From a virus (lineage: Duplodnaviria > Heunggongvirae > Uroviricota > Caudoviricetes): 25,290 nt of DNA. Both the position numbers and the translations under genes were made by a program. Positions within the stretch are counted from its first letter, which is position 1, and every line of letters begins with the position of its first letter. Of the stretch, positions 1,509 through 17,344 are shown piece after piece. Location: IMG/VR virus record IMGVR_UViG_3300035502_000737; one strand, 5' to 3'. Below the pieces are notes generated by a model. That model was not told the DNA's origin and searched no databases. It was given only the letters and a program-made list of their open reading frames with translations.

Positions 1509-3743
1509 ATGAAGGGTCTTTACTTTTATAAATTAGTGTCACCATATGCGGAGGACGAAACAAAGGACTGCAAGTTGACCGTGAATGAGATTGACCATAA
1601 TTTTGTCACCCTCAAGGATGCCGACATCAAGGAGGTTTCAATTGACAAGGAGCACGGATTCCTTGTTTTGGAGACTAACAGCGGAGACAAGTTGAGAGCT
1701 GACATTTCAAGTTTCACTCAAGGCTTGGAAATCAATTATGATAAATCGAACGGTACACTTGAAATCAAGCATGACGGCGTTGTGGAGACAATCGACGGAC
1801 TTGCCACGAGCGGAAACCTTTCGCAAGAGATTGTGAACAATATCATCACGGACGAGACTTTGAGCGGAACGGGTACTGAAAAGCACCCCATCGGAATCTC
1901 AGACCTTGAGAAGACCTCATCTTTCAGAAAGGTAATCCGAGTGCTTGACAAGACGAACGGAGAGTCGCTCCCCGAACGCCATCACTTGAACAAGGGAGAC
2001 CGTTTCATCACGTTTGAGAACGTGAACGAGTACGGTTTCTTGTATTCCTTCAAGTATGCCAAACAGCTTGTGGAGGACTTGAACAGCAAGTGGAGGATTC
2101 CTACCAAGGAGGATTGGGACAACATGCTGAACGCCATCGAGCCTTGCGAGAGCGATAGGAACCATGGCATTGACACATGCAACATCCTTCTAGGCAAATT
2201 CGCAGGAAAGCTCCTTAAGTCAAAGACTCTTTGGCTTGGTGGAAAGCTTGAACCGAACGATTCTAGCGAATGCTCCCTCTCTGCCGATGACATCGTGGAG
2301 GATGACGTTACTGCTGACAGCGAGGACGTTACTGAACATCCGAAGCAAAAGCCGAGCAAGACAGACGGAACCGATTCTTATGGCATGAAGCTCCTTGCGA
2401 GCGGATATGGTGACGGCTGCCAAATGATGGATTACTTCTCTCAGAGAGGCAAGTTTTGGACTTCGACCGCAATCCGTGTCACGGACATCTATACCAAGCG
2501 TTTCGACTACGACAAGACGGGTGTCGCTCAGTTGGCTGACAATCCCAACTCGCTGTGCTCTCTGCGCCTTGTGAAGGATTACGACGGAAAGAACTTCAGT
2601 GGATATGAGACCATCGAGGGCGTTGTATATAAGACGGTGTTGTTGCCTAGCTTGAACTCTGAGCATGGATACGCCATTTGGCTCGGAAGCAACTTGGCCG
2701 TGGACAACGTGAAGTATAATCCCGTAGTGCCAAACAATGGAAATTGCAAGGGAACCAAGAGAGTTTGCTTCATCAACGAGTGGAACGGTTTCGGTTGGGA
2801 GAAGAAAGCTTTGACAGAAGGCGATTCGATGACCATCTTGTTCGGACCCGACGGAAGTAGGGACGAGGAGTTCCGCTTCATAAAGGGAAAACTCGTAAAC
2901 GTGAAGAGGGATATCATCGGTGCGGTGGTTAACAAATACGACGGCGACATCACCATCTTGAACAACGAGGTGTCAATGCTGAAGGATAGGGCTGACGAGA
3001 CCGACAAGAGGATTTTGGGGCTGAATGAAGCCATCCAAACCGAATCTGACAAGAGAGAGAATGCCGACGCATTGCTTGAATCCGCCATCAATACGGAAAT
3101 CGCAGATAGGAAGGAAGCAATCAATGCTGTGGAGGATGAAATCGCAGATGTGACCGAGAAGTTGGAGGCTGCCGACCAAAAGTTGGATGAATCCGTCTCT
3201 GCGGAGAAGGCTACAAGAGAAGAGGTTGAAGCTCAGATTTGGGCGTCCATCAACGGCGAGATTAAGGCACGTGAGGATGTTGAGAAGCAGATTTGGGAAG
3301 CCATCAACAACGAAACCGCAGCGAGGGAAGATGTGGAGTCTCAGCTTTGGAAGGGAATCACCGCAGAGCGTGAGGCAAGGGAAAGTGTGGAAGCCCAGCT
3401 TTGGGACGCCGTCAATGGTGTCATCAACGACAAGGACGAGGTCAACAAGCAGATTTGGGAGGCCATCAACAACGAGACCGCAGCTAGGGAAGATGTGGAG
3501 AAGCAGATTTGGTCTGCCATCAACAAGGAATCCGATTCGAGGGAGGACGTTGAGTCTCAGATTTGGAAGTCGTTGAACAACGAGATTGCAAGGGCCAAGG
3601 CAGCTGAAGAGGAGTTGGATTCGCAACTTATCGTGGAGGAAGGTTCTTCTTACAAGTGTAGGGAAGGCGTCTTGACGCTCGCCGCAAAGGATGAGGAAAA
3701 GACCATACGCATCAAGTTGGACAGCAACTATGGCACTTTCTAA
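1509..3743 (+). CDS. Fibre/receptor-binding-like virion protein with a FISUMP (Fib_succ_major-like) domain and a C-terminal 18-aa coiled-coil repeat
   Basis: YGFLYSF, WRIPTKEDW, AGKLLKSKTLW, GTDSYGM, GKFWTST and SLRLVKD match the Fibrobacter succinogenes major paralogous domain pattern. Seven Trp-containing 18-aa repeats lie near the C-terminus, and the protein ends in NYGTF. Confidence 0.7.
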   Translation: MKGLYFYKLVSPYAEDETKDCKLTVNEIDHNFVTLKDADIKEVSIDKEHGFLVLETNSGDKLRADISSFTQGLEINYDKSNGTLEIKHDGVVETIDGLATSGNLSQEIVNNIITDETLSGTGTEKHPIGISDLEKTSSFRKVIRVLDKTNGESLPERHHLNKGDRFITFENVNEYGFLYSFKYAKQLVEDLNSKWRIPTKEDWDNMLNAIEPCESDRNHGIDTCNILLGKFAGKLLKSKTLWLGGKLEPNDSSECSLSADDIVEDDVTADSEDVTEHPKQKPSKTDGTDSYGMKLLASGYGDGCQMMDYFSQRGKFWTSTAIRVTDIYTKRFDYDKTGVAQLADNPNSLCSLRLVKDYDGKNFSGYETIEGVVYKTVLLPSLNSEHGYAIWLGSNLAVDNVKYNPVVPNNGNCKGTKRVCFINEWNGFGWEKKALTEGDSMTILFGPDGSRDEEFRFIKGKLVNVKRDIIGAVVNKYDGDITILNNEVSMLKDRADETDKRILGLNEAIQTESDKRENADALLESAINTEIADRKEAINAVEDEIADVTEKLEAADQKLDESVSAEKATREEVEAQIWASINGEIKAREDVEKQIWEAINNETAAREDVESQLWKGITAEREARESVEAQLWDAVNGVINDKDEVNKQIWEAINNETAAREDVEKQIWSAINKESDSREDVESQIWKSLNNEIARAKAAEEELDSQLIVEEGSSYKCREGVLTLAAKDEEKTIRIKLDSNYGTF
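3204..3620 (+). repeat. About 7 tandem 54-bp (18-aa) coding repeats, consensus AREDVEKQIWEAINNETA
   Basis: Visible in both protein and DNA, e.g. aagcagatttggga(a/g)gccatcaacaacga(a/g)accgcagc occurs twice, three units apart. Confidence 0.9.
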
Positions 3744-3781: not shown

Positions 3782-6700
3782 ATGGAAGAATTAAATAACA
3801 GATTGCAGTTTGTTCATCACGAGGGAGTCTTCAAGACGAGTGAGGAAGCGATTGACTATGTTAAGCAAGAATCCATTATCGATTACCCTGCGCTGTATGC
3901 GGAACCCATGATTGTCGCATATGGCAACGAGAAGGAGCCGAACATCATTTTGTGTATCGGCTCCCACGGTAACGGAAGCGCTAACTTGGCCAATAAGGTG
4001 TTCTTCATCGATTTCGCCTCTTTGGAGGAATCCGTGAAGGCTGCCGTTGAACAAGCGAGTGGCAGTGCCGAGGACATTGCACAAATCGAGAAGGCAGTGG
4101 CCGAGCTGCAAGAGGCCGACAAGACTTTGAAGGACGCAATCGATGCTGAGTCCGAGCGTGCGAAGAAGGCAGAGTCTGACCTTAAGGTGTCGGTCAAGGA
4201 CACGGACACCGTCTCTCTGTCGATGGACAGCGCATCTGAAGGAAACGTAATCTCCGCAGATGTGAAGGTGGCCAAGTCAAAGGTGGTCAATAAGGAAGAG
4301 TTGACAAACTTGCTCATCTCCGACGAGAATGGCTTGTTCCTCAATGCGAGCGTTGACTACGAGAATGACACCCTTACCTTCAAGGCGAACGGAAACGTCA
4401 TCAAGGTGGCAGAACTTCCCCATGAGGTTCATGTTGTAAGCGGTAAGTACGATACCAATACCGAGTCGATTGTCTTGTCGCTGAACAACGGCGAGGATAT
4501 TTCAATCGATGTGGAAGACCTTATCGGAGAGCTGAGCGTGGGCAAGGAATCGGAACAGGTTCACCCCGTCATCTTGAAGAGGGACAGCGTCGTTTACAAT
4601 AAGGAACTTCACTCGACAGAGTCACACCAAGACATCTTGAGCGCTGACGTCCGTTTGAAGGAGGCTTCCGACAACATCCTTGTCAAGGCGGTTGACAACG
4701 GTCTTGAGAGCTTGTACGTAAAGGGTGTTGCTTCCAACATCAAGGAATCCTACAAGGGAGACACACAGACCGTCCAAGAGACGTTGGACAGCCTTCGCGA
4801 GAGTGAGCTGAAAGTTTCCGACAAGGAAGGCAACATCATCAAGAACGACGGAAAGAACGGTATTTACAGCATCGTCACCTTGGCGTATGACTCGAACACC
4901 AACAAGCTGAAGTTCAACAACGGACTTGGTGAGCAGACCATCCAATTGGCTTCCGCATCGCTTGTGGACCATGTGGACTATAGCAACGGAATCTTGAAAC
5001 TGTACCTAAAGCTTGCAGACGGTTCCACCTCTACGGTTGAAATCAATATCACCGACATCATCAAGGAGAATCAGATTGACAATACGGACAGAACCGTGAC
5101 CTTGTCTTCAAAGGAAGGTGACGGCGCGTTTACATTGTCGGCTGACGTGAATGTGTCGGATGAGGATACCAACTTGCTGAAGGTAAAGGCACACGCCCTT
5201 TATGTAAGTAACCAAGCTTCTGACATCAAGTATGGTAAGGGTGATGTGGCTGCATCACTTGACACGTTGCTTGGAGGCGTTGATTCCGAAGGTTCTGTGA
5301 AGAACTTGATTAACGCCGAGAAGGAGGCAAGGGAAGCTTCAGACGTGGAACTGAAGGGTTCCATCACGGAGAATGCCCATGCCATCGAAGCCAACACTTC
5401 TGCATTCAATTCGCTGAAGGCTGAGGTTGAGGCTGACGAGGATGTCATTGCGAAGAACAAGGAAGGCATCGAGAGCAACAAGGCGTCTATTTCTGCCATC
5501 GAGAAGGACGTGGAGACACTTGCCACTTCGGTAGGCTCTATCAAGATTGAGAAGCAGAGCGGAAATGACTTGTACTATGACTTGTTGGTTGACAACGAGA
5601 CAAGGGGCACGGTAATCATCCCGAAGGACAATTACTTGGATAGCGTCACTTTCGACGAGGCTAGCAAGGTTCTGACCTTGAACCTTATCAATGGCGGAGA
5701 GAACACACCGTTCACCGTTTCACTCGCTTCTTTGTATAATGTATATACGCAAGGAGAAGGCGTTTCCATCAAGAATGGCGTTGTATCCGTACAGAAGTCT
5801 GAAGGCGACGAAGGTTTCTTGGAAGTTTCCGAGCAAGGCGTCAAGGTGGTTGGCGTGAAGGCTGCCATCGAGAAGAGCGCTCAGACAACTGCCGCTTATG
5901 CGGATTCCATCGTGGAGAAGGCGCAAGACATCGCAGTTTCCACCGCAGAGGAATACGCAGAGAAGAAGGACGCTGAAACCTTGAAAGAGGCAAAGGCATA
6001 CACAGATACGGTTGAGCTGAAGAAGGTTGACGACTTGACTTATGAGTTCCAAATCAACGGAGTGACCAAGTCAACCATCAGCATTCCGAAAGACCAATTC
6101 TTGTCAGATGCAAGGTATGACGAAGGGAACAAGGAACTTGTCTTCGTATTCCAATTGCAAGACGAGAAGAACGAGGTTAGAGTTCCCGTTGGCAGCTTGG
6201 TTGACACTTACACGGTAGGTGATGGCTTGCAAGCCAAGGGCACTGAATTCTCCGTGAAGGTCGCAGCAGATTCCGAATCCTACTTGACCGTAAGCGCTGA
6301 AGGCGTGAAGGTAAGCGGAATCGAGGAAGCCATCGACAACGCAGAGAAGGAAGCCATTTCCGTATCGAAGGCATATACGGAATCCATCACTCTCGTACAG
6401 CATGAGGACAACCCGTTGCACTATGAGCTGAAGATTGGAACCGTATCGCTCGGTGAAATCAACGTCCCGAAAGACCAATTCTTGAAGAGCGCCAAGTATG
6501 ACGCAGCCAACAAGAACCTTGTCTTCGTATTCGTTACTGAGGACGGTGAGGTCACTTCTGAGGTGAATGTAGCTGACTTGGTTGACACTTACGGGGCTAG
6601 CGAAGGATTGACAATCGATGCCGACAACAACTTCTCAGTAAAGGTTGCCGCTGATTCCGAGGCATATTTGACAGTATCCAAGGAAGGAATCAAGGTAAGC

Positions 6701-8365
6701 GGAATCAACAAGGCCATCGATGATATCAAGGCGACTGTTTCCGAGGCTGACGAGAAGGTGCTTGCAAGTGCCAAGGAATACGCTGACGGAATCAAGATTG
6801 AACAGTCTTCCGACAATGACCACGTGTACAACTTGTACCTTGGAGACGTGAAGAAAGGCAGCGTCGAGATTCCTTCTGACGTTCACTTGGAGAATGTGTC
6901 CATCGCTGATGACAAGCTTGTCTTCGATTTCGTGGGCAAGGAACAGCAGACCGTTGACTTGAGCAAGTACATCGACATCTATGGAGCTGGCGATGGTTTG
7001 TCTCTCTCTGACAACACCTTCAAGATTGAACTTTCCAATGATTCCGAGAAATACTTGTACATCACCAACGGAGTCCTCAAGCTTAGTGGTGTGGATGCAG
7101 CCATCAAGGAATCCGCAGACGCCACCATCGCTTCCGCAAACGCATACGCTGACGAGGCAGCTGCCAATGTGAAGGTGAAGGTTGCTAGCACGAATTCAAT
7201 CGCGTTGAATGTCGCTGAGGACAAGACCTTGACCGCAGAGTTGAACGTGGTTGACGCCACAAACAACTTGATTCACAAGAGCGAGGACGGAATCTACGCA
7301 AACGGTGTAAAGAGCGTAACCTATGACCCGACCACTTCGGTTCTGACCGTTTCTGACGGAGAGAACATCGATGAGTATGTCTTGTCAAGCAACTCTCTTG
7401 TCACCGACGCAGAGTACAACGAGCAAGGACAGTTGGTTTTGACCGTAACCACCGCAAGTGGAGAGGACAAGAAGATTATCGCGAACTTCGAGAGCGTTGT
7501 GGGCGGCAACGAGGCAAACAGCCCAATCACTGTCGTATCCACCAAGAACGGCAACGTGAACACCATCACAGCGACCTTGAAGATTTCCACCTCTTCCAAC
7601 AACCAACTCTCTCAGAACGACGGGGCACTCTTCGTAAGCAAGCTTGCTGAAGACCATATCGGAACTTACCGCGAGAACGAGAAGACCTTGCAAGAGGCTC
7701 TGAACCAAATCGCGGCTGAGATTACCGCAGTGGACAATAAGGCTGACAAGGTGACTGAGTTGAGCGAGGATGTGAAGGTTCTGCAATCTTCCGCAACCAC
7801 CATCTACTTGACAGCCACAGAAGCCAAGTCAAGCGCTAGCGAGGCGAAGACACTTGCTACCGAGGCCAACACCAATGCGACGAATGCCAAGTCTACCGCT
7901 GACGAACTTGCCACAAGGGTTACAGTCTTGGAGAACACTTCCACTGCTACTAATGCAAGTGTGGAGAAAGCGATTGCCACCGCAAACGCAGCTAAGGAAG
8001 CTTCCGACAAGGCTACAGAATCTGTTTCCTCTTATGATGATGCCATCAGTGATGCGACCGACAAGGCAACCGAGGCAAGCAAGAAAGCGGATGTGGCTAG
8101 CGATAAGGCTGACGCAGCGGCAGAAAAAGCTGATACAGCAATCGAAAAGGCAGATGCTGCACAAGCTGACGTTGACGCACTCGAAGAGACCGTATCGGCA
8201 CTCACAGTCACCATCAACGAGCTGACCGATGAGAACGCTGCCTTGAAGGAGAGAGTTGCCGCCATCGAAACACTGTTGACCAAGATTACCAACTTCGGAG
8301 AATATGACGAGAATGGAGCTGAAATCACGGAAACCGATGACGATGAAGAAGGTGAAAGCAAGTGA
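3782..8365 (+). CDS. 1527-aa acidic repeat-rich fibre-like virion protein
   Basis: Long ORF alternating beta-rich repeats (IPKDxxL...YD...LVF; SADV...NLL...GLYV) with Ala/Glu-rich coiled-coil segments. No enzymatic motif seen. Followed by a terminator. Confidence 0.7.
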   Translation: MEELNNRLQFVHHEGVFKTSEEAIDYVKQESIIDYPALYAEPMIVAYGNEKEPNIILCIGSHGNGSANLANKVFFIDFASLEESVKAAVEQASGSAEDIAQIEKAVAELQEADKTLKDAIDAESERAKKAESDLKVSVKDTDTVSLSMDSASEGNVISADVKVAKSKVVNKEELTNLLISDENGLFLNASVDYENDTLTFKANGNVIKVAELPHEVHVVSGKYDTNTESIVLSLNNGEDISIDVEDLIGELSVGKESEQVHPVILKRDSVVYNKELHSTESHQDILSADVRLKEASDNILVKAVDNGLESLYVKGVASNIKESYKGDTQTVQETLDSLRESELKVSDKEGNIIKNDGKNGIYSIVTLAYDSNTNKLKFNNGLGEQTIQLASASLVDHVDYSNGILKLYLKLADGSTSTVEINITDIIKENQIDNTDRTVTLSSKEGDGAFTLSADVNVSDEDTNLLKVKAHALYVSNQASDIKYGKGDVAASLDTLLGGVDSEGSVKNLINAEKEAREASDVELKGSITENAHAIEANTSAFNSLKAEVEADEDVIAKNKEGIESNKASISAIEKDVETLATSVGSIKIEKQSGNDLYYDLLVDNETRGTVIIPKDNYLDSVTFDEASKVLTLNLINGGENTPFTVSLASLYNVYTQGEGVSIKNGVVSVQKSEGDEGFLEVSEQGVKVVGVKAAIEKSAQTTAAYADSIVEKAQDIAVSTAEEYAEKKDAETLKEAKAYTDTVELKKVDDLTYEFQINGVTKSTISIPKDQFLSDARYDEGNKELVFVFQLQDEKNEVRVPVGSLVDTYTVGDGLQAKGTEFSVKVAADSESYLTVSAEGVKVSGIEEAIDNAEKEAISVSKAYTESITLVQHEDNPLHYELKIGTVSLGEINVPKDQFLKSAKYDAANKNLVFVFVTEDGEVTSEVNVADLVDTYGASEGLTIDADNNFSVKVAADSEAYLTVSKEGIKVSGINKAIDDIKATVSEADEKVLASAKEYADGIKIEQSSDNDHVYNLYLGDVKKGSVEIPSDVHLENVSIADDKLVFDFVGKEQQTVDLSKYIDIYGAGDGLSLSDNTFKIELSNDSEKYLYITNGVLKLSGVDAAIKESADATIASANAYADEAAANVKVKVASTNSIALNVAEDKTLTAELNVVDATNNLIHKSEDGIYANGVKSVTYDPTTSVLTVSDGENIDEYVLSSNSLVTDAEYNEQGQLVLTVTTASGEDKKIIANFESVVGGNEANSPITVVSTKNGNVNTITATLKISTSSNNQLSQNDGALFVSKLAEDHIGTYRENEKTLQEALNQIAAEITAVDNKADKVTELSEDVKVLQSSATTIYLTATEAKSSASEAKTLATEANTNATNAKSTADELATRVTVLENTSTATNASVEKAIATANAAKEASDKATESVSSYDDAISDATDKATEASKKADVASDKADAAAEKADTAIEKADAAQADVDALEETVSALTVTINELTDENAALKERVAAIETLLTKITNFGEYDENGAEITETDDDEEGESK
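5540..7150 (+). repeat. Four imperfect 127-155 aa modules inside the 1527-aa protein
   Basis: Anchors IPKDNYL (5618), IPKDQFL (6083), VPKDQFL (6464) and IPSDVHL (6869), each followed by Y..G(D/E)G(L/V)...(Y/F)L.V...GVK.SG-like segments. Outer boundaries are approximate. Confidence 0.85.
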
Positions 8366-11427: not shown

Positions 11428-11461
11428 ACTTGACATTTAAATTTCTTTTGTGTATCTTTGC
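11428..11461 (+). promoter_or_regulatory. Bacteroidota-type housekeeping promoter for the polymerase N-half
   Basis: ACTTG-N20-TATCTTTGC. The -7 box fits the Bacteroides TAnnTTTG consensus with a TTG at about -33. Confidence 0.75.
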
Positions 11462-11541: not shown

Positions 11542-13965
11542 ATGGCTGAGAAAAGCAACAAGGAAATAGTGGGCGAGTTCTTGAACGGACGCGACCCGAT
11601 GGAACGAATCATTTGCATCGAATGCGAGTATGCGGACGAGCAAGTGAGCGTCATATATGTGAACGAAAAAGGAGAGAAAAGAATAAAGACAGAGGATTTC
11701 CATCCTTTCGCATGGGTGAAGTTGGACGCTTGCATGAAGATGTTCGACGGGGACAAGAACGCACTCAAGCGAGAGTTGGCTCACTATGGTATAGGAATCA
11801 AGCCGCTTATTACACAGATGGGAGAGTCCGAGGTGTCGGACAGACTTGAGAACGGATACAAGTTCCTTTTCTACGCCAAGAGGAAAATGTCCTTCCAAAC
11901 CTTCCTCACCTTCTTCTCCAAGGCGAAGACACCCATTTACGAGAGGAAAAAGAAGGATGAACAGAAGGACAAATCACAGAATTTCCTTGTGGTGTCCCCT
12001 ATCGAACAGTATATGATTTCCACGGGAAAAAGACTCTTCAAGGGTTATGATAACTATGATGACCTACACAGACTCCAATTCGACCTTGAGACACAAGGAT
12101 TGGACCCTAACAAGTGTGGAATAGACCAAATAGGTATCAGAACCAACAGAGGATACGAACACGTCATCGATGTGGAAGGGGAAGACGACGAAAGAAAGGT
12201 GAGCGAACTGCAAGCCATCATCGAGTTCCTATCCATCCTCGCGGAACAGAAACCCGACATCATCGCTGGCCACAACTCCGAGAACTTCGATTGGAACTTC
12301 ATCATCGTCCGCTGTGAGAAACTCGGAACATCCCTCGACGAACTCTCTCGGAAGTTCTTTCGTTATCCAATATATAAGAGGAAAAAGGAAACCGTCCTCA
12401 AATTGGGAGGCGAAGTGGAATACTTCAAGCCAACCATCATGTGGGGACACAATGTCGTGGACTCACTTCACGCCGTAAGACGTGCACAAGCCATCGACTC
12501 AAACATCAAGTCGGCGAACTTGAAATACGTCACGCAGTTCTTGAGCTTGAAGAAGGAGAACCGTGTCTATGTGCCAGGCTCACAGATTGGCACGATATGG
12601 CGCGTTTTAGAGCCCGTATACGCATTTAACAACACGGATGGAGACTGGTATCGTATCACGGATAAAAAGCCTTTAAAACAAGGCTATGAGGCTGTGAGCG
12701 GCAAATATATCGTACACCGTTACCTACTTGACGATATTTGGGAAACAGACAAGGTAGAACTGAAACTGAACGAGTCAAACTTCCTCATCGGGAAGATGAT
12801 ACCCACCACGTTCCAAAGAGCATGCACGATGGGTACAGCTGCGATTTGGAAACTGATTCTGCTGTCGTGGAACTACGAGCACGGATTGGCGGTGCCAGCC
12901 TTCGGAAAGAAGAGAAGCTTCACGGGAGGACTTTCACGACTCCTTAAGGTGGGATATTCAGATAGAATCGTAAAATTAGACTACAACTCTCTTTACCCGT
13001 CCATTATTCTGACATGGAATATCAAGACGGAGCTCGATATCTCGAATTCTAGCCTTACCATGCTCGAATATGTGCTGTCAGAACGAGAGTACTACAAGGG
13101 GCTCAAGGAAGCGGCTGCCAATAAAGTAAAGGAAGTCAAAGCGCAAATCGAGAGTTTCAAAGGTTCGGATGAGGAACTTCATAAACTGAAGTTGGAACTT
13201 CAGAAGTGGGAGGCGGAGAAAACGGCGAATGACAAGAAACAGCTGCCTCTGAAGATTCTAGGAAATAGTTATTTCGGATCAGCTGGTTCCCCCAATATCT
13301 ACCCCCTTGGCGACGTGGACTGCGCCGAACGTACGACTTGTATCGGTCGCATGAGTCTCCGCCTCATGATTTCACACTTCACGAATCTTGGCTACACACC
13401 CATCGTTGGTGACAGCTTCACTTCCGACACTCCTATCTTCGTGCGCAAGAAGGGTTCTGTTGACATTGACATCAAGCCCATCTGCGAGCTGATAACGGAG
13501 AAAAACATCCAAGTGGACGCTTTTGGACGCGAGTATGATTACAAGGTGGATTACCAAGCGCTGTGCAGAAGCGGATGGGTGGATGTGAAATATGTATACC
13601 GCCACAAGACCGACAAACCCATCTACCACGTCACTGACGGATATATGAGTGTGGACGTCACGGAAGACCACAGCTTGTTCAATGATAAGAAGGAGAAAAT
13701 CAAGCCGAGCGAGATTACGGAAGAAACAAAGCTTGAATTTTATACAGATAAGATTGAGCACGGAAGCTACAGCGTGGAAGAGAAGGAGTGTGAGATTATC
13801 GCCAAGATGGTAGGGAACGGAACATTGGACAGAATACCCATGAAGATTCTGAACGGTGACAAGAAGACAAGGCTCACCTTCATCGGCAAGGCAATGGAAT
13901 ATGTGAACGCAAATCGTCTCGGAAAGGTTGCGCTCGCTGGAATGCAATTCCTCTGCCGTTCATGA
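11542..13965 (+). CDS. polB: Family B DNA polymerase, N-terminal half (aa 1-624), fused to split-intein N fragment (aa 625-807)
   Basis: ExoI FDLET, ExoII GHNSENFDW, ExoIII YLLDD, motif A DYNSLYPSII and motif B KQLPLKILGNSYFG are present. Motif C breaks off after YTPIVGD and intein sequence follows. Confidence 0.95.
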   Translation: MAEKSNKEIVGEFLNGRDPMERIICIECEYADEQVSVIYVNEKGEKRIKTEDFHPFAWVKLDACMKMFDGDKNALKRELAHYGIGIKPLITQMGESEVSDRLENGYKFLFYAKRKMSFQTFLTFFSKAKTPIYERKKKDEQKDKSQNFLVVSPIEQYMISTGKRLFKGYDNYDDLHRLQFDLETQGLDPNKCGIDQIGIRTNRGYEHVIDVEGEDDERKVSELQAIIEFLSILAEQKPDIIAGHNSENFDWNFIIVRCEKLGTSLDELSRKFFRYPIYKRKKETVLKLGGEVEYFKPTIMWGHNVVDSLHAVRRAQAIDSNIKSANLKYVTQFLSLKKENRVYVPGSQIGTIWRVLEPVYAFNNTDGDWYRITDKKPLKQGYEAVSGKYIVHRYLLDDIWETDKVELKLNESNFLIGKMIPTTFQRACTMGTAAIWKLILLSWNYEHGLAVPAFGKKRSFTGGLSRLLKVGYSDRIVKLDYNSLYPSIILTWNIKTELDISNSSLTMLEYVLSEREYYKGLKEAAANKVKEVKAQIESFKGSDEELHKLKLELQKWEAEKTANDKKQLPLKILGNSYFGSAGSPNIYPLGDVDCAERTTCIGRMSLRLMISHFTNLGYTPIVGDSFTSDTPIFVRKKGSVDIDIKPICELITEKNIQVDAFGREYDYKVDYQALCRSGWVDVKYVYRHKTDKPIYHVTDGYMSVDVTEDHSLFNDKKEKIKPSEITEETKLEFYTDKIEHGSYSVEEKECEIIAKMVGNGTLDRIPMKILNGDKKTRLTFIGKAMEYVNANRLGKVALAGMQFLCRS
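13414..13962 (+). mobile_element. Split intein N fragment (IntN, 183 aa, Ser1)
   Basis: Block A SFTSDTPIFV directly follows GD. YVYRHKTDK and block B VDVTEDHSLF are present. The ORF stops without blocks F/G. Confidence 0.92.
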
Positions 13966-14006
13966 CCGCGATGTGGGTTACTTTAAGATGATATTTACCA
14001 CATTTA

Positions 14007-14459
14007 ATGAGGACACAATACAAGCTTGACACACAAACATTCATCAATCGGAGCAATGAAAAACACAACGGCAAGTATGACTACTCAAAGACTGAATATA
14101 GAAACTTCAGAACCAAAGTAGTCATCACTTGCCCCCTTCACGGTGACTTTGAACAGACCCCAAAGAACCATTTAAAAGGTGAAGGCTGCCCCTTATGCGG
14201 CAAAGAATACGCAAAGACGTGGAGAAAATGTAAATACCAACACTTTACGGAGGAAAGCAAAAGAAGATTCGGAAACACATATTCATTCCCTCTTATCGAG
14301 GAGGAATACGAGAATTCACACTCAAGAGTCACAGTCCATTGCAATCTTTGCAACTATGATTTCACAAAGATTGCTTGCGACCATCTAACTTCCGAGATGG
14401 GAGGATGCCAACATCTTGACTATTTATTGAAACTAATACACGAAAAAGACAAATTATAA
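14007..14459 (+). CDS. Zinc-ribbon repeat protein (DUF723-like) with no nuclease domain, possibly a truncated homing endonuclease
   Basis: One full repeat (YDYSKTEY...ITCPLHGDFEQTPKNHLKGEGCPLC) and a second that ends GGCQHL, lacking the last Cys. Confidence 0.75.
   Translation: MRTQYKLDTQTFINRSNEKHNGKYDYSKTEYRNFRTKVVITCPLHGDFEQTPKNHLKGEGCPLCGKEYAKTWRKCKYQHFTEESKRRFGNTYSFPLIEEEYENSHSRVTVHCNLCNYDFTKIACDHLTSEMGGCQHLDYLLKLIHEKDKL
14421..14427 (+). promoter_or_regulatory. TATTTAT motif upstream of the endonuclease gene
   Basis: 38 nt before the ATG at 14466, embedded in the 3' end of the preceding ORF. Confidence 0.4.
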
Positions 14460-14465
14460 ACCTAT

Positions 14466-15617
14466 ATGACCAAAAAGTTAACGCGCGAGGAATTCATCGA
14501 CAAGTACAAACAGAGATTCCCCAATTCAACTTACGACTTTAGTAAATTCGAGTATGAAAATTCACACAAGCAATCAATTGTTATCTGCCCAAAGCATGGA
14601 GAGTTTTTAATGAATACATGCTGCCTTTTAAGCGGAACGGGTTGTCCGAAGTGTGGAGGCACAAAGAAAATGACTACTGAAGAATTTATAGAGCAAGCAA
14701 ACCTTGTACATCACAATTATTTTACGTACGACAAGGTTGAGTATGTAAATAATTTCACAAAGGTTATCATTACTTGTCCAATACATGGAGACTTCGAACA
14801 AAAACCAAACGTTCACTTGGAAGGGCATACTTGCCCACAATGCCGTAAAGAAGGAATTAAGCACGAGATAACATTGCGCGAACAAGTGAACGCTTCAACA
14901 AAGAAACTCACTCAAGAAGATTTCATAAGAAGGGCAACAAAGTTGTTCCCCAATTATGACTTCTCGAAATCTCTCTATGTGAAAAGTGGAATTAAAATCA
15001 TTGTTACTTGTAAGGAGCATGGTGATTTTGAAATAACGCCTAATCACTTGTTTGGAAATCGTGGATGTCCATATTGTTCAAAGAACAAGAAGATGAACAC
15101 AGAGGATTTTATCAAGAAATACAGAGAACGCTTCCCTTTGTCCACACTCGATTTCAGTGAAAGCGAATATAGAGGAACACATGTACCAATTAAGGTAAAA
15201 TGCCACGAGCATGAGAAAGTGGAAGAATTTTGGAATGAACCTTCGAATCTTTTGAGTGGACAAGGATGCCCATTTTGTTCAAAAAGTAAACTCGAAAACG
15301 AAGTATCTACATTATTGTACAAAAACAATATTGAATACGTTGAACAAAAGAAATTTGATTGGCTTGGAATGAAGCGGCTTGACTTCTATTTGCCGCAGAA
15401 GAACATAGCCATTGAATGCCAAGGAGAACAGCACTTTAAGGAGTACGAGTTTTTCGGAGGGAAGGAAGCTTTCGAAAAGCAGTTGGAACGCGATGCGGAA
15501 AAGAAAAGGCTCTGCGAGGAGAACAACATCAAACTTCTCTATTTCACACACGTAGATGTGAATGATGAAGAAATGATAAAAGATACGGACACTCTTTTAA
15601 GCAAAATTAACGAATGA
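14466..15617 (+). CDS. Free-standing putative homing endonuclease: four zinc-ribbon repeats plus a Vsr/DUF559-like PD-(D/E)xK domain
   Basis: Repeats of KK(L/M)xxE(E/D)FI...CxxH...CPxC occur four times. The C-terminus reads SKLENEV...EQKKF...RLDFYLP..NIAIECQGEQHF...RDAEKKRLCEENNIKLL. It looks more AT-rich than the flanking pol sequence. Confidence 0.85.
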   Translation: MTKKLTREEFIDKYKQRFPNSTYDFSKFEYENSHKQSIVICPKHGEFLMNTCCLLSGTGCPKCGGTKKMTTEEFIEQANLVHHNYFTYDKVEYVNNFTKVIITCPIHGDFEQKPNVHLEGHTCPQCRKEGIKHEITLREQVNASTKKLTQEDFIRRATKLFPNYDFSKSLYVKSGIKIIVTCKEHGDFEITPNHLFGNRGCPYCSKNKKMNTEDFIKKYRERFPLSTLDFSESEYRGTHVPIKVKCHEHEKVEEFWNEPSNLLSGQGCPFCSKSKLENEVSTLLYKNNIEYVEQKKFDWLGMKRLDFYLPQKNIAIECQGEQHFKEYEFFGGKEAFEKQLERDAEKKRLCEENNIKLLYFTHVDVNDEEMIKDTDTLLSKINE

Positions 15618-15619
15618 AA

Positions 15620-15653
15620 ACTTGCTATCCAAAAGCCTTTTTCGTATCTTTGC
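15620..15653 (+). promoter_or_regulatory. Bacteroidota-type promoter for the polymerase C-half
   Basis: ACTTG-N20-TATCTTTGC, with the same boxes and spacing as the promoter at 11428. Confidence 0.78.
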
Positions 15654-15683
15654 AATATAAGAACAATGTAAAAATGAACAATC

Positions 15684-15788
15684 ATGCCACTGAAAGTTGA
15701 AAACAAAGGAAAAATTGACGATTATGTGTACGACATATCACTAGATGGGAGTGTCGTGAACGCTCTTGGGAGGAACAATTTTTGCAAT
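15684..15788 (+). mobile_element. Split intein C fragment (IntC, 35 aa, ends Cys-Asn, +1 Thr)
   Basis: Block F DYVYDIS, terminal Asn35, then Thr at 15789. Confidence 0.9.
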
Positions 15789-17267
15789 ACAGATGGATTC
15801 AACATGAAAATGCCGTCCGACGACAAATTTCGTTACACTGACGCCCATCCATACATCGGTCTGGGCTTGGGTCGCAACACGGTGAAGGGCAAGGAGTACA
15901 CGAAGGTTGAGGCTGATGTGGCGGAGTTCGAGGACATGTTCATGAATAGTGCGTACAATGGGGGAATAAATAAAATGGGATTAGGTATTGATGAGTACTG
16001 TCCAGCCACCATTAATTTCTCCCGTAAGAACTACGCTGACCGTCTTGAGAACGGCAAGACGAAGCTTGTGGGTAACACCATCAAGTCCCGTCGCATGTCC
16101 TCTTACATTGAGAAGTTTCTTGACAGTGGCGTGAATCTTCTCCTCAACGGTGACGGTCACTCGTTCCTTGAGAATTATTATGCGTACATTGACAAGATTT
16201 TCAATTATCAGATTCCTCTTCGTGACATTGCCTCCAAGGGCAAGATTAAGAAGAGTGTGGAGGATTACATCAAGGACTGTTCGACGTTGACGAAGAGTGG
16301 CAGCAAGAAATCCCGTCAAGCTTGGTATGAGCTTGTCATCAATGCCAAGATGAAGGTTGACCTCAACGATACCATTTATTATGTGAATGTGGGCAAGAAG
16401 AAGTCGGAGAGTGACGTGAAGCGTGTGACCCATGTGTTTGTGAGGGTTGACGGTGAGGAGATGGAGTTGAACAAGGATTCGAAGAAGCTGATATTCGAGA
16501 AGGAATACGGAAAGGGTTACAAGCTCAAGGACATTGGCAAGGAGAATGTGGACAAGACGTTGGAGAAGTACACGGTGAGGACGGAGGATGAGATTCTATT
16601 GAATTGCAAGATGGTTCCGAGTGAGATTGTGGATGCGGAGGAGGACATCATGTGTACGGATGAGATTGAGTACAATGTGGAGAAGTACATTGAGCAGTTC
16701 AACAACCGAATCAAGCCATTGTTGGTATGTTTCTCGCTTGACATTCGGGACAAGATTATGATTAAGGACCCGAATGAGAGGCCGTACTTCACGGAGGAGC
16801 AGTGTAGGCTGACGAGTGGTTTCCCGTACAAGGCGGAGGACCAAGACACGTATGAGCAGTTGATGACGCCAGAGAGGAAGGAGATGGATTTTTGGGACAG
16901 TGTGCATGAGGTTCCTCCCTTTGTGAAGGAGTGTGGGATTGATTGGGATAGGATGATGGAGGAATACCACGAGACCAAGAGGAAGGAGCAAGACGAGTTG
17001 TTCCAAGAGGAGAACGAGAAGTACTTGAAGGCGATTAACTCGCTTACCATGGAGGACATTGAAAAGTTCGAGGAGGAGGGAAAGTTGCCGAGCAAGATTT
17101 CCGACATCGTGAAGTTAGACTCTGACTTGAAGTTCAGATTCTTGAAGATTCCTTCCATGACTCCAAGCACGGGAGGCTACATTTTCTCTGACTTTATCAT
17201 CCCAGACTTGTCAGAGGAGAAGTATGAAATTATGGAAGAAGCTGCAACTGCTTCTTCTGCTATATGA
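15684..17267 (+). CDS. polB: Split-intein C fragment (aa 1-35) fused to the C-terminal half of the family B DNA polymerase (aa 36-527)
   Basis: After YVYDISLDG...NNFCN comes TDGF, which completes motif C (GD+TDG). RKNYA and KLVGNTIK follow, and the thumb-type YNVEKYIEQF lies further on. Confidence 0.93.
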   Translation: MPLKVENKGKIDDYVYDISLDGSVVNALGRNNFCNTDGFNMKMPSDDKFRYTDAHPYIGLGLGRNTVKGKEYTKVEADVAEFEDMFMNSAYNGGINKMGLGIDEYCPATINFSRKNYADRLENGKTKLVGNTIKSRRMSSYIEKFLDSGVNLLLNGDGHSFLENYYAYIDKIFNYQIPLRDIASKGKIKKSVEDYIKDCSTLTKSGSKKSRQAWYELVINAKMKVDLNDTIYYVNVGKKKSESDVKRVTHVFVRVDGEEMELNKDSKKLIFEKEYGKGYKLKDIGKENVDKTLEKYTVRTEDEILLNCKMVPSEIVDAEEDIMCTDEIEYNVEKYIEQFNNRIKPLLVCFSLDIRDKIMIKDPNERPYFTEEQCRLTSGFPYKAEDQDTYEQLMTPERKEMDFWDSVHEVPPFVKECGIDWDRMMEEYHETKRKEQDELFQEENEKYLKAINSLTMEDIEKFEEEGKLPSKISDIVKLDSDLKFRFLKIPSMTPSTGGYIFSDFIIPDLSEEKYEIMEEAATASSAI

Positions 17268-17301: not shown

Positions 17302-17339
17302 AAGCCCACCTTCGTTGTGATAACGAGGATGGGCTTTTT
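17302..17339 (+). terminator. Rho-independent terminator after the polymerase C-half
   Basis: Imperfect stem AAGCCCACCTTCGTT/AACGAGGATGGGCTT plus a T-run, between convergent genes. Confidence 0.8.
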
Positions 17340-17344
17340 CATTG

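Follow-up and report, generated by a model that had tools for sequence, protein, structure and literature searches.

We examined a 25,290-nt stretch (the window) of a tailed-phage record, IMGVR_UViG_3300035502_000737 of the class Caudoviricetes, and found that it carries a family B DNA polymerase (PolB) gene broken into two open reading frames (ORFs), whose products are most probably rejoined by protein trans-splicing through a Ser1/Thr+1 split intein at the pol-c site. ORF1 encodes the first part of the polymerase followed by an N-intein, ORF4 encodes a C-intein followed by the remainder, and two further ORFs lie between them (Table 1). Homologues agree with these ORFs and their partition, which had been proposed in an initial annotation made from the letters of the sequence.

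The broken polymerase and its junction

ORF1 contains the Pfam domains DNA_pol_B_exo1 and DNA_pol_B and has PHROG matches as well, and archaeal PolB structures in the PDB align with it as far as motif C. ORF4 matched nothing in any hidden Markov model (HMM) library scanned, and a phmmer search of it against the PDB gave nothing usable; its homologues number in the thousands. The uninterrupted homologue P0122 (1113 aa) aligns through its residues 2-627 with ORF1 residues 4-625 (69% identity) and through its residues 626-1104 with ORF4 residues 35-515 (67% identity), the two exteins meeting exactly at GD/TDG, where the slash marks the junction, with zero residues lost or gained. Joining aa 1-624 of ORF1 to aa 36-527 of ORF4 (624 + 492) restores GDTDG in a polymerase of 1116 aa, just as had been predicted. 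The break falls between the two aspartates of motif C, with D624 ending the N-extein and T36 opening the C-extein, and this placement, together with the Ser625/Asn35/Thr36 chemistry proposed for it, holds when set against the homologues. A longer homologue, P0121 (1469 aa), carries a contiguous intein at the same position as the split in the window; the start of that intein is matched by ORF1 aa 625-747 and its end by ORF4 aa 12-35.

The insertion site between D and T of motif C is the classical pol-c intein site, described as YGD/TDS, where archaea and Mimivirus carry LAGLIDADG inteins that have Ser1 and Thr+1 and where the polymerase of Nanoarchaeum equitans is split (PMC549080). A profile search of the PDB with the N-intein returned no archaeal pol-c intein at E ≤ 1. 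Recoding of stop codons, by which ORF2, ORF3 and ORF4 (which share a frame) would be joined, was considered and rejected, the separating stops being a mixture of TAA and TGA.

Table 1. Positions of the polymerase locus features in the window
Feature	Position	Strand	Remarks
Promoter-like motif CTTG-N20-TATCTTTG	11429-11460	+	Upstream of N-half; putative, Bacteroidota-type
ORF1	11542-13965	+	807 aa; PolB N-half and N-intein
PolB N-extein, aa 1-624	11542-13413	+	Exo I-III, motifs A and B, first motif C Asp (D624)
N-intein Hint part, ~aa 625-744	13414-13773	+	Ser1 = S625, NX motif R687-H688, block B T707/H710
Degenerate LAGLIDADG remnant, C-terminal tail of N-intein, ~aa 745-807	13774-13962	+	From alignment to contiguous intein
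ORF2	14007-14459	+	150 aa; zinc-ribbon ORF
ORF3	14466-15617	+	383 aa; free-standing endonuclease
ORF3 nuclease domain, aa 265-383	15258-15614	+	EDxHD/Vsr-like, C-terminal; Foldseek
Second promoter-like motif copy	15621-15652	+	In 66-nt spacer before C-half; putative
ORF4	15684-17267	+	527 aa; C-intein and PolB C-half
C-intein, aa 1-35	15684-15788	+	Block F Asp D17, penultimate Cys34, terminal Asn35
PolB C-extein, aa 36-527	15789-17267	+	Thr+1, second motif C Asp, KxY motif, thumb
Hairpin and U-run after C-half	17302-17341	.	z -3.74; 0/200 shuffles as stable

The window is part of a 54.7-kb viral record with a CheckV completeness of about 16%, and its polymerase relatives sit on contigs of 345-412 kb; we thus regard it as a fragment of a jumbo phage. 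The low completeness would also suit an assembly artefact, or a pseudogene decaying in a phage genome that is defective or fragmentary, as would the appearance of ORF2, which looks like an endonuclease remnant, and the in-frame stops found in the endonuclease of some relatives. However, both polymerase halves are intact, free of frameshifts and 63-69% identical to full-length homologues, and, among the matches listed, clusters at 90% identity number more than 100 for either half. Moreover, a close relative (L018) from an independent assembly of another sample, with 91-95% DNA identity, has the same split, which rules out the mis-assembly that had been raised as a concern. Decay or artefact is thus extremely unlikely as an explanation of this locus.

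The intein halves and the LAGLIDADG remnant

The N-intein, which had been put at about 100 aa, is in fact 183 aa long, and the C-intein 35 aa. Ser1 (block A) stands directly after PIVGD, and block B reads T707-E-D-H710. Among the matches listed, all 113 split N-halves have Ser1 and the TxxH of block B, and all 98 split C-halves have the terminal Asn and Thr+1; Ser1 also occurs in every contiguous-intein relative. The Arg-His pair at aa 687-688 is invariant in the N-intein alignment and corresponds to the NX motif, a conserved His that follows Arg or Lys upstream of block B and has been described as specific to Ser1 inteins (PMC10189870); it aligns with the Lys-His of the intein of Aeromonas phage Aes123, and a profile of the N-intein against the PDB matched this same PolB1 split intein (9hth, E 3.9e-5). 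The contiguous-intein relatives carry precomputed PF14890 and PF14528 matches. The ratio of nonsynonymous to synonymous substitution rates (omega) in the Hint part was 0.04-0.09 in the closest pairs, the same constraint as on the exteins; only the two closest pairs were used, synonymous sites being saturated in most pairs.

A model of the complex of the N-intein (IntN) with the C-intein (IntC) scored 0.86, as against 0.00 for the best of three controls; 58 of 80 solved complexes attained this mark, and so did 2 of 110 mismatched pairs. The runs shared at least 84% of contacts, with a partner predicted local distance difference test (pLDDT) value of at least 51. Because split-intein complexes have already been solved, this result may partly reflect likeness to them, so that at most the model would indicate likeness and association, with no bearing on chemistry. 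The conserved residues, the NX motif, the profile match to Aes123, the low omega and the complex model suggest that the intein is competent to splice.

Association through the intein fragments with little or no splicing would leave the polymerase a noncovalent two-chain enzyme, and some of the evidence can be read in this way: split polymerases and reductases without inteins do work (T4-like gp43 and NrdA; PMC2677866), the window C-intein ends in an unusual Cys-Asn, and the complex model supports association only. However, the break lies within the DTD catalytic turn, so that an unexcised intein would occupy the active site, and the splicing residues are invariant in the approximately 100 alleles listed and strongly constrained, while association alone would need neither. 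We therefore consider a two-chain polymerase improbable.

Several observations weigh against splicing by this intein. At 183 aa, the N-intein is much longer than in characterized split inteins, as natural N-inteins measure 88-105 aa (PMC2677866) and that of Aes123 120 aa. The penultimate residue of the window C-intein, Cys34, is unique among the 98 C-halves listed (Ser in 57, His in 30, Lys in 7, Arg in 3 and Cys in 1), and the block G penultimate His is thereby replaced in a C-intein that is without any His. Active inteins lacking the penultimate His exist, and this residue is not strictly defining. A scan of both ends with intein HMMs was proposed in the initial annotation as a check: at the N-terminal end NCBIfam intein_Nterm (TIGR01445) scored 20.1 bits, short of its cutoff of 24.5, at the C-terminal end (ORF4) no library matched, and a Pfam scan of the window yielded no intein match. 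Because intein_Nterm stayed sub-threshold and ORF4 HMM-silent, the intein call rests on homologues, not on stock HMMs. Support for trans-splicing itself comes from residue conservation and the complex model. As to an intron in its place, an Rfam scan of the window and of related loci totalling 130 kb gave no match; the scan had no positive control and is weak evidence against introns.

Under the trans-splicing of a fractured PolB that we favor, the LAGLIDADG domain of a pol-c intein would have been invaded by free-standing endonuclease genes, leaving the long N-intein on the N-half and the short C-intein on the C-half. The two polypeptides would be made separately, and their intein halves would associate; splicing in trans via oxyester intermediates and cyclization of Asn35 would then yield the full-length polymerase with its catalytic GDTDG intact. 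The EDxHD endonuclease encoded by ORF3 would probably cut cassette-less polymerase alleles and so spread the whole unit by homing. Anatomy, homology, conserved catalytic residues and the pattern of mobility are observed directly, whereas splicing, the endonuclease activity and its target we infer.

The tail of the N-intein is a decayed LAGLIDADG domain. Compared with the contiguous intein, it aligns to both LAGLIDADG motifs, the first of which is without its acidic residue and the second eroded, with about 80 aa deleted, and the ORF1 chain stops just past a conserved helix (SK..AG..FL). Every split allele keeps the remnant, with an IntN that measures 182-200 aa, and the omega of the remnant, about 0.2 in the closest pair, is more relaxed than that of the Hint part while still indicating some constraint. 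Because its terminal helix touches the C-intein in the modelled interface, the remnant might help to capture the C-intein. That the remnant is a retained functional module, serving either this capture or as DNA-recognition partner of the free-standing endonuclease, is a speculative reading that we think unlikely. If the latter were true, the two would form a two-component homing system, and with either role natural split inteins would show a design principle that is new.

Inserted endonuclease genes and related loci

The insert of 1718 bases had been described as an endonuclease; ORF3 fits that description, while the insert holds two ORFs and not one. ORF2 has two DUF723/CapR-type zinc-ribbon repeats and, in Pfam and PHROG scans, no nuclease domain; it is about 38% identical to the repeats of ORF3 and is also present in L018. 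ORF3 has four zinc-ribbon repeats (DUF723/CapR/DUF4379) N-terminal of its nuclease domain and matches PHROG homing endonuclease families. A model of the nuclease domain (pLDDT 92.1) had as its top Foldseek matches Vsr (1cw0, E 1.5e-4, TM 0.70) and I-Bth0305I (3r3p, E 2.3e-3, TM 0.70 on the target), a fold that bears out the Vsr-like (EDxHD) assignment. In an alignment of 58 nuclease-domain sequences, E13, D42, E53, H59 and D79 are invariant, as is a Lys, and the Asp and His are 17 residues apart, as are D196 and H213 of I-Bth0305I. The fold search alone succeeded in this respect: phmmer of ORF3 against the PDB gave nothing usable, a nuclease-domain profile had no match among PDB sequences, and an AlphaFold model of full-length ORF3 made from the single sequence (pLDDT 46.8) was discarded. 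No NUMOD or helix-turn-helix (HTH) DNA-binding region was found in the N-terminal part of ORF3, which has the zinc-ribbon repeats instead. ORF3 is thus predicted, from its alignment and modelled fold, to be an EDxHD-type nuclease with a different DNA-binding module.

The endonuclease varies among split alleles. The same nuclease is present in L005, L009 and L015, L013 has a weak match only, and L001 and L003 have no match to the ORF3 nuclease profile; the insert ORF of L001 keeps the zinc-ribbon repeats and has a differently sequenced nuclease-like segment. In L018, an extra 1363-nt insertion lies directly after the ORF1 stop (between window positions 13969 and 13970); it encodes a second complete endonuclease of 476 aa (L018:7421-8851), with DUF723 repeats and a Vsr-like domain, whose start overlaps the N-half stop by ATGA, so that up to three endonuclease-type ORFs stand in tandem in one split intein. 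From this extra tandem gene we conclude that endonuclease genes turn over within the split intein. In L009 (6060-6950), the endonuclease is broken by one in-frame stop into parts of 69 aa and 227 aa in the same frame; its resemblance to the ORF2/ORF3 pair suggests either decay or a recurrent two-part form.

An alternative is that the endonuclease cassette lies in an intron, of group I or another type, that is spliced out of the mRNA; translation would then give a contiguous intein of about 218 aa acting in cis. EDxHD endonucleases do occur in introns (PMC3239194), Jug phages have many small group I introns (PMC12880540), and Rfam, with zero matches across the related loci as well, seems insensitive here. 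On the other hand, only 113 of the 1718 bases of the insert are non-coding, the spacers (41 nt before the endonuclease-type ORFs and 66 nt before the C-half) are unstructured (z −0.74 and +0.53), and Rfam matched nothing in the window with the E limit raised to 1. In every allele the C-half starts at an ATG of its own that follows stops, and in L001, L003 and L005 it overlaps the endonuclease gene by ATGA; furthermore, the tail of ORF1 evolves as coding sequence, and the cassettes of close relatives differ by whole genes. Removal as an intron, which would still require protein splicing of the polymerase, is thus very improbable.

The order seen in the window (N-extein and IntN, endonuclease, IntC and C-extein, all on one strand) is the fractured-gene arrangement that had been recognized at the outset, and the one-strand order of N-half, endonuclease and C-half is repeated in L001, L003, L005, L009, L013, L015 and L018. 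The layout recurs in many assemblies that are independent of one another and is widespread in these phages. Among 16 related loci, the site is empty in four (L007, L008, L012 and L014), holds a contiguous LAGLIDADG intein of 355 aa in five (L004, L006, L010, L011 and L016), and is split with intervening ORFs, as in the window, in L001/L002, L003, L005, L009, L013 and L015. Among the matches listed, clusters of uninterrupted polymerases number at least 117, those with a contiguous intein at least 12, split N-halves at least 113 and split C-halves at least 98, counts that are not to be read as frequencies. The three allele states are interspersed on a tree of the C-exteins, with 24 changes in total, and its well-supported branches force at least 12 changes for the split state; near-identical exteins are found in different allele states. 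Because the states are interspersed, the element is mobile: it has been gained and lost repeatedly and does not derive from a single fracture, a pattern that would be expected for homing and precise loss.

Two loci have features of their own. The C-half ORF of L015 (6950-8530), taken from its first start codon, is 425 aa long and lacks the C-intein and the TDGF start, which may reflect a damaged allele or an alternative start. L003, on a 393-kb contig, has an IS605 OrfB/TnpB-type gene (208-1338; Cas12f-like TNB domain) immediately upstream of its split polymerase. Two homologues of the ORF1 N-half, P0248 and P0314, are labelled by NCBI as 'Bacilli bacterium' metagenome-assembled genome proteins, and probably derive from phage contigs binned into bacterial genomes. 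Upstream of the polymerase, the window has large plus-strand ORFs at 3782-8365 (1527 aa) and 1509-3743 (744 aa).

Signals for expression of the two halves were also sought. The putative promoter motif CTTG-N20-TATCTTTG, which we take to resemble the Bacteroides −33 and −7 promoter elements, has only two matches in the window, one before each half, with 0.21 expected by chance. Most related loci have a TAnnTTTG box before the N-half, at a distance of 62-92 nt from its ATG. The copy before the C-half is kept in L018 despite substitutions in the spacer and takes a different form in L003; it is not present before the C-half in L001, L005 or L009. The hairpin after the C-half is likely a bidirectional terminator shared with a convergent 596-aa minus-strand gene, and no plus-strand terminator-like site was found between ORF1 and ORF4. 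It is reasonable to suppose that both halves are co-transcribed, an internal promoter being optional. The only metatranscriptome run with 5% of the sequence words gave five short contigs of a related strain and no joints, and a loose end at 13954 matches the L018-type allele; the run is neutral on splicing and transcription.

Known systems and significance

The locus shares with the fractured genes of Dassa et al. (2009) the order and strand of its parts, its host gene (a phage replication enzyme), the Vsr-like type of its endonuclease, the short spacer (41 nt in the window) that precedes the endonuclease and a C-intein within the published range of 33-54 aa. It differs from them in that PolB is not among the published hosts, in that the N-intein carries a LAGLIDADG remnant and is 183 aa long as opposed to 88-105 aa, and in that two or three endonuclease-type ORFs stand in tandem in the window lineage; in addition, it has no significant hairpin upstream of the endonuclease, and zinc-ribbon repeats take the place of NUMOD DNA binding. 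The nuclease of ORF3 has a close counterpart in I-Bth0305I (3R3P; PMC3239194), the prototype EDxHD homing endonuclease, which is similarly bipartite with a C-terminal Vsr-like nuclease and the E/D/H/D residues; however, I-Bth0305I is intron-encoded and has NUMOD/HTH motifs, whereas ORF3 is free-standing in a split intein and has four zinc-ribbon repeats.

Archaeal and Mimivirus pol-c inteins (PMC549080) have the same site, Ser1 and Thr+1 as the window and a LAGLIDADG domain, and at 351 aa they compare with the 355 aa of its contiguous relatives, whereas the host of the element in the window is a bacterial jumbo phage. Previously described split PolB inteins are those of N. equitans, Aes123, PolB16 and phage MIJ3, and the literature agrees with the initial annotation in citing the first two. 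The N. equitans Pol intein, which is thermophilic, is split at the same site as that of the window, but its two halves are encoded at distinct loci that have no intervening endonuclease. Aes123 PolB1, from T4-like Aeromonas phages (9HTH; PMC11923092), is like the window intein a naturally split, mesophilic, cysteine-independent PolB intein, and is the closest solved structure by profile, with the K/R-H NX motif and the block B T-x-D-H-S aligned; overall sequence similarity is low, its IntN is 120 aa long against 183 aa, and, unlike it, the window intein has non-catalytic cysteines. The split-intein PolB of Pseudomonas jumbo phage MIJ3/PA5oct (PMC6892783) has block B and F motifs similar to those of the window and weak tblastn matches to it; it has an intervening HNH endonuclease and Ser+1, as opposed to EDxHD and Thr+1, and belongs to another lineage and host.

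With a polymerase only about 59-67% identical to theirs, the phage is distantly related to the Jug gut phages of Bacteroides and Phocaeicola (PMC12880540), and its host is probably a member of the Bacteroidota. In the phage collection, neither a megablast search with the locus nor a tblastn search with ORF4 produced a match. The Jug paper (PMC12880540) notes polymerase genes that are split by intervening endonuclease sequences, and its main text contains no analysis of split inteins or trans-splicing. Given these genes and the split-intein PolB of MIJ3 (PMC6892783), the suggestion that the allele in the window may be undescribed was overstated.

Fractured genes (2009), split PolB inteins and the split polymerase genes of Jug phages (2026) are thus already published; the present analysis adds that the insertion site is pol-c, that three allele states circulate together, that the N-intein keeps a LAGLIDADG remnant and that tandem endonucleases turn over. 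The locus documents, in one phage lineage, the proposed stages of gene breaking, from an empty site through a contiguous LAGLIDADG intein and its fracture by a free-standing endonuclease to the gain and loss of tandem endonucleases, and it is a natural system in which competition between selfish elements inside an essential gene can be studied. It also exposes more than 100 natural variants of a mesophilic split intein of the Ser1/Thr+1 class, which protein engineers regard as very rare and useful (PMC10189870), and it accounts for the frequent annotation of the polymerase as two genes in these abundant jumbo phages of the gut.

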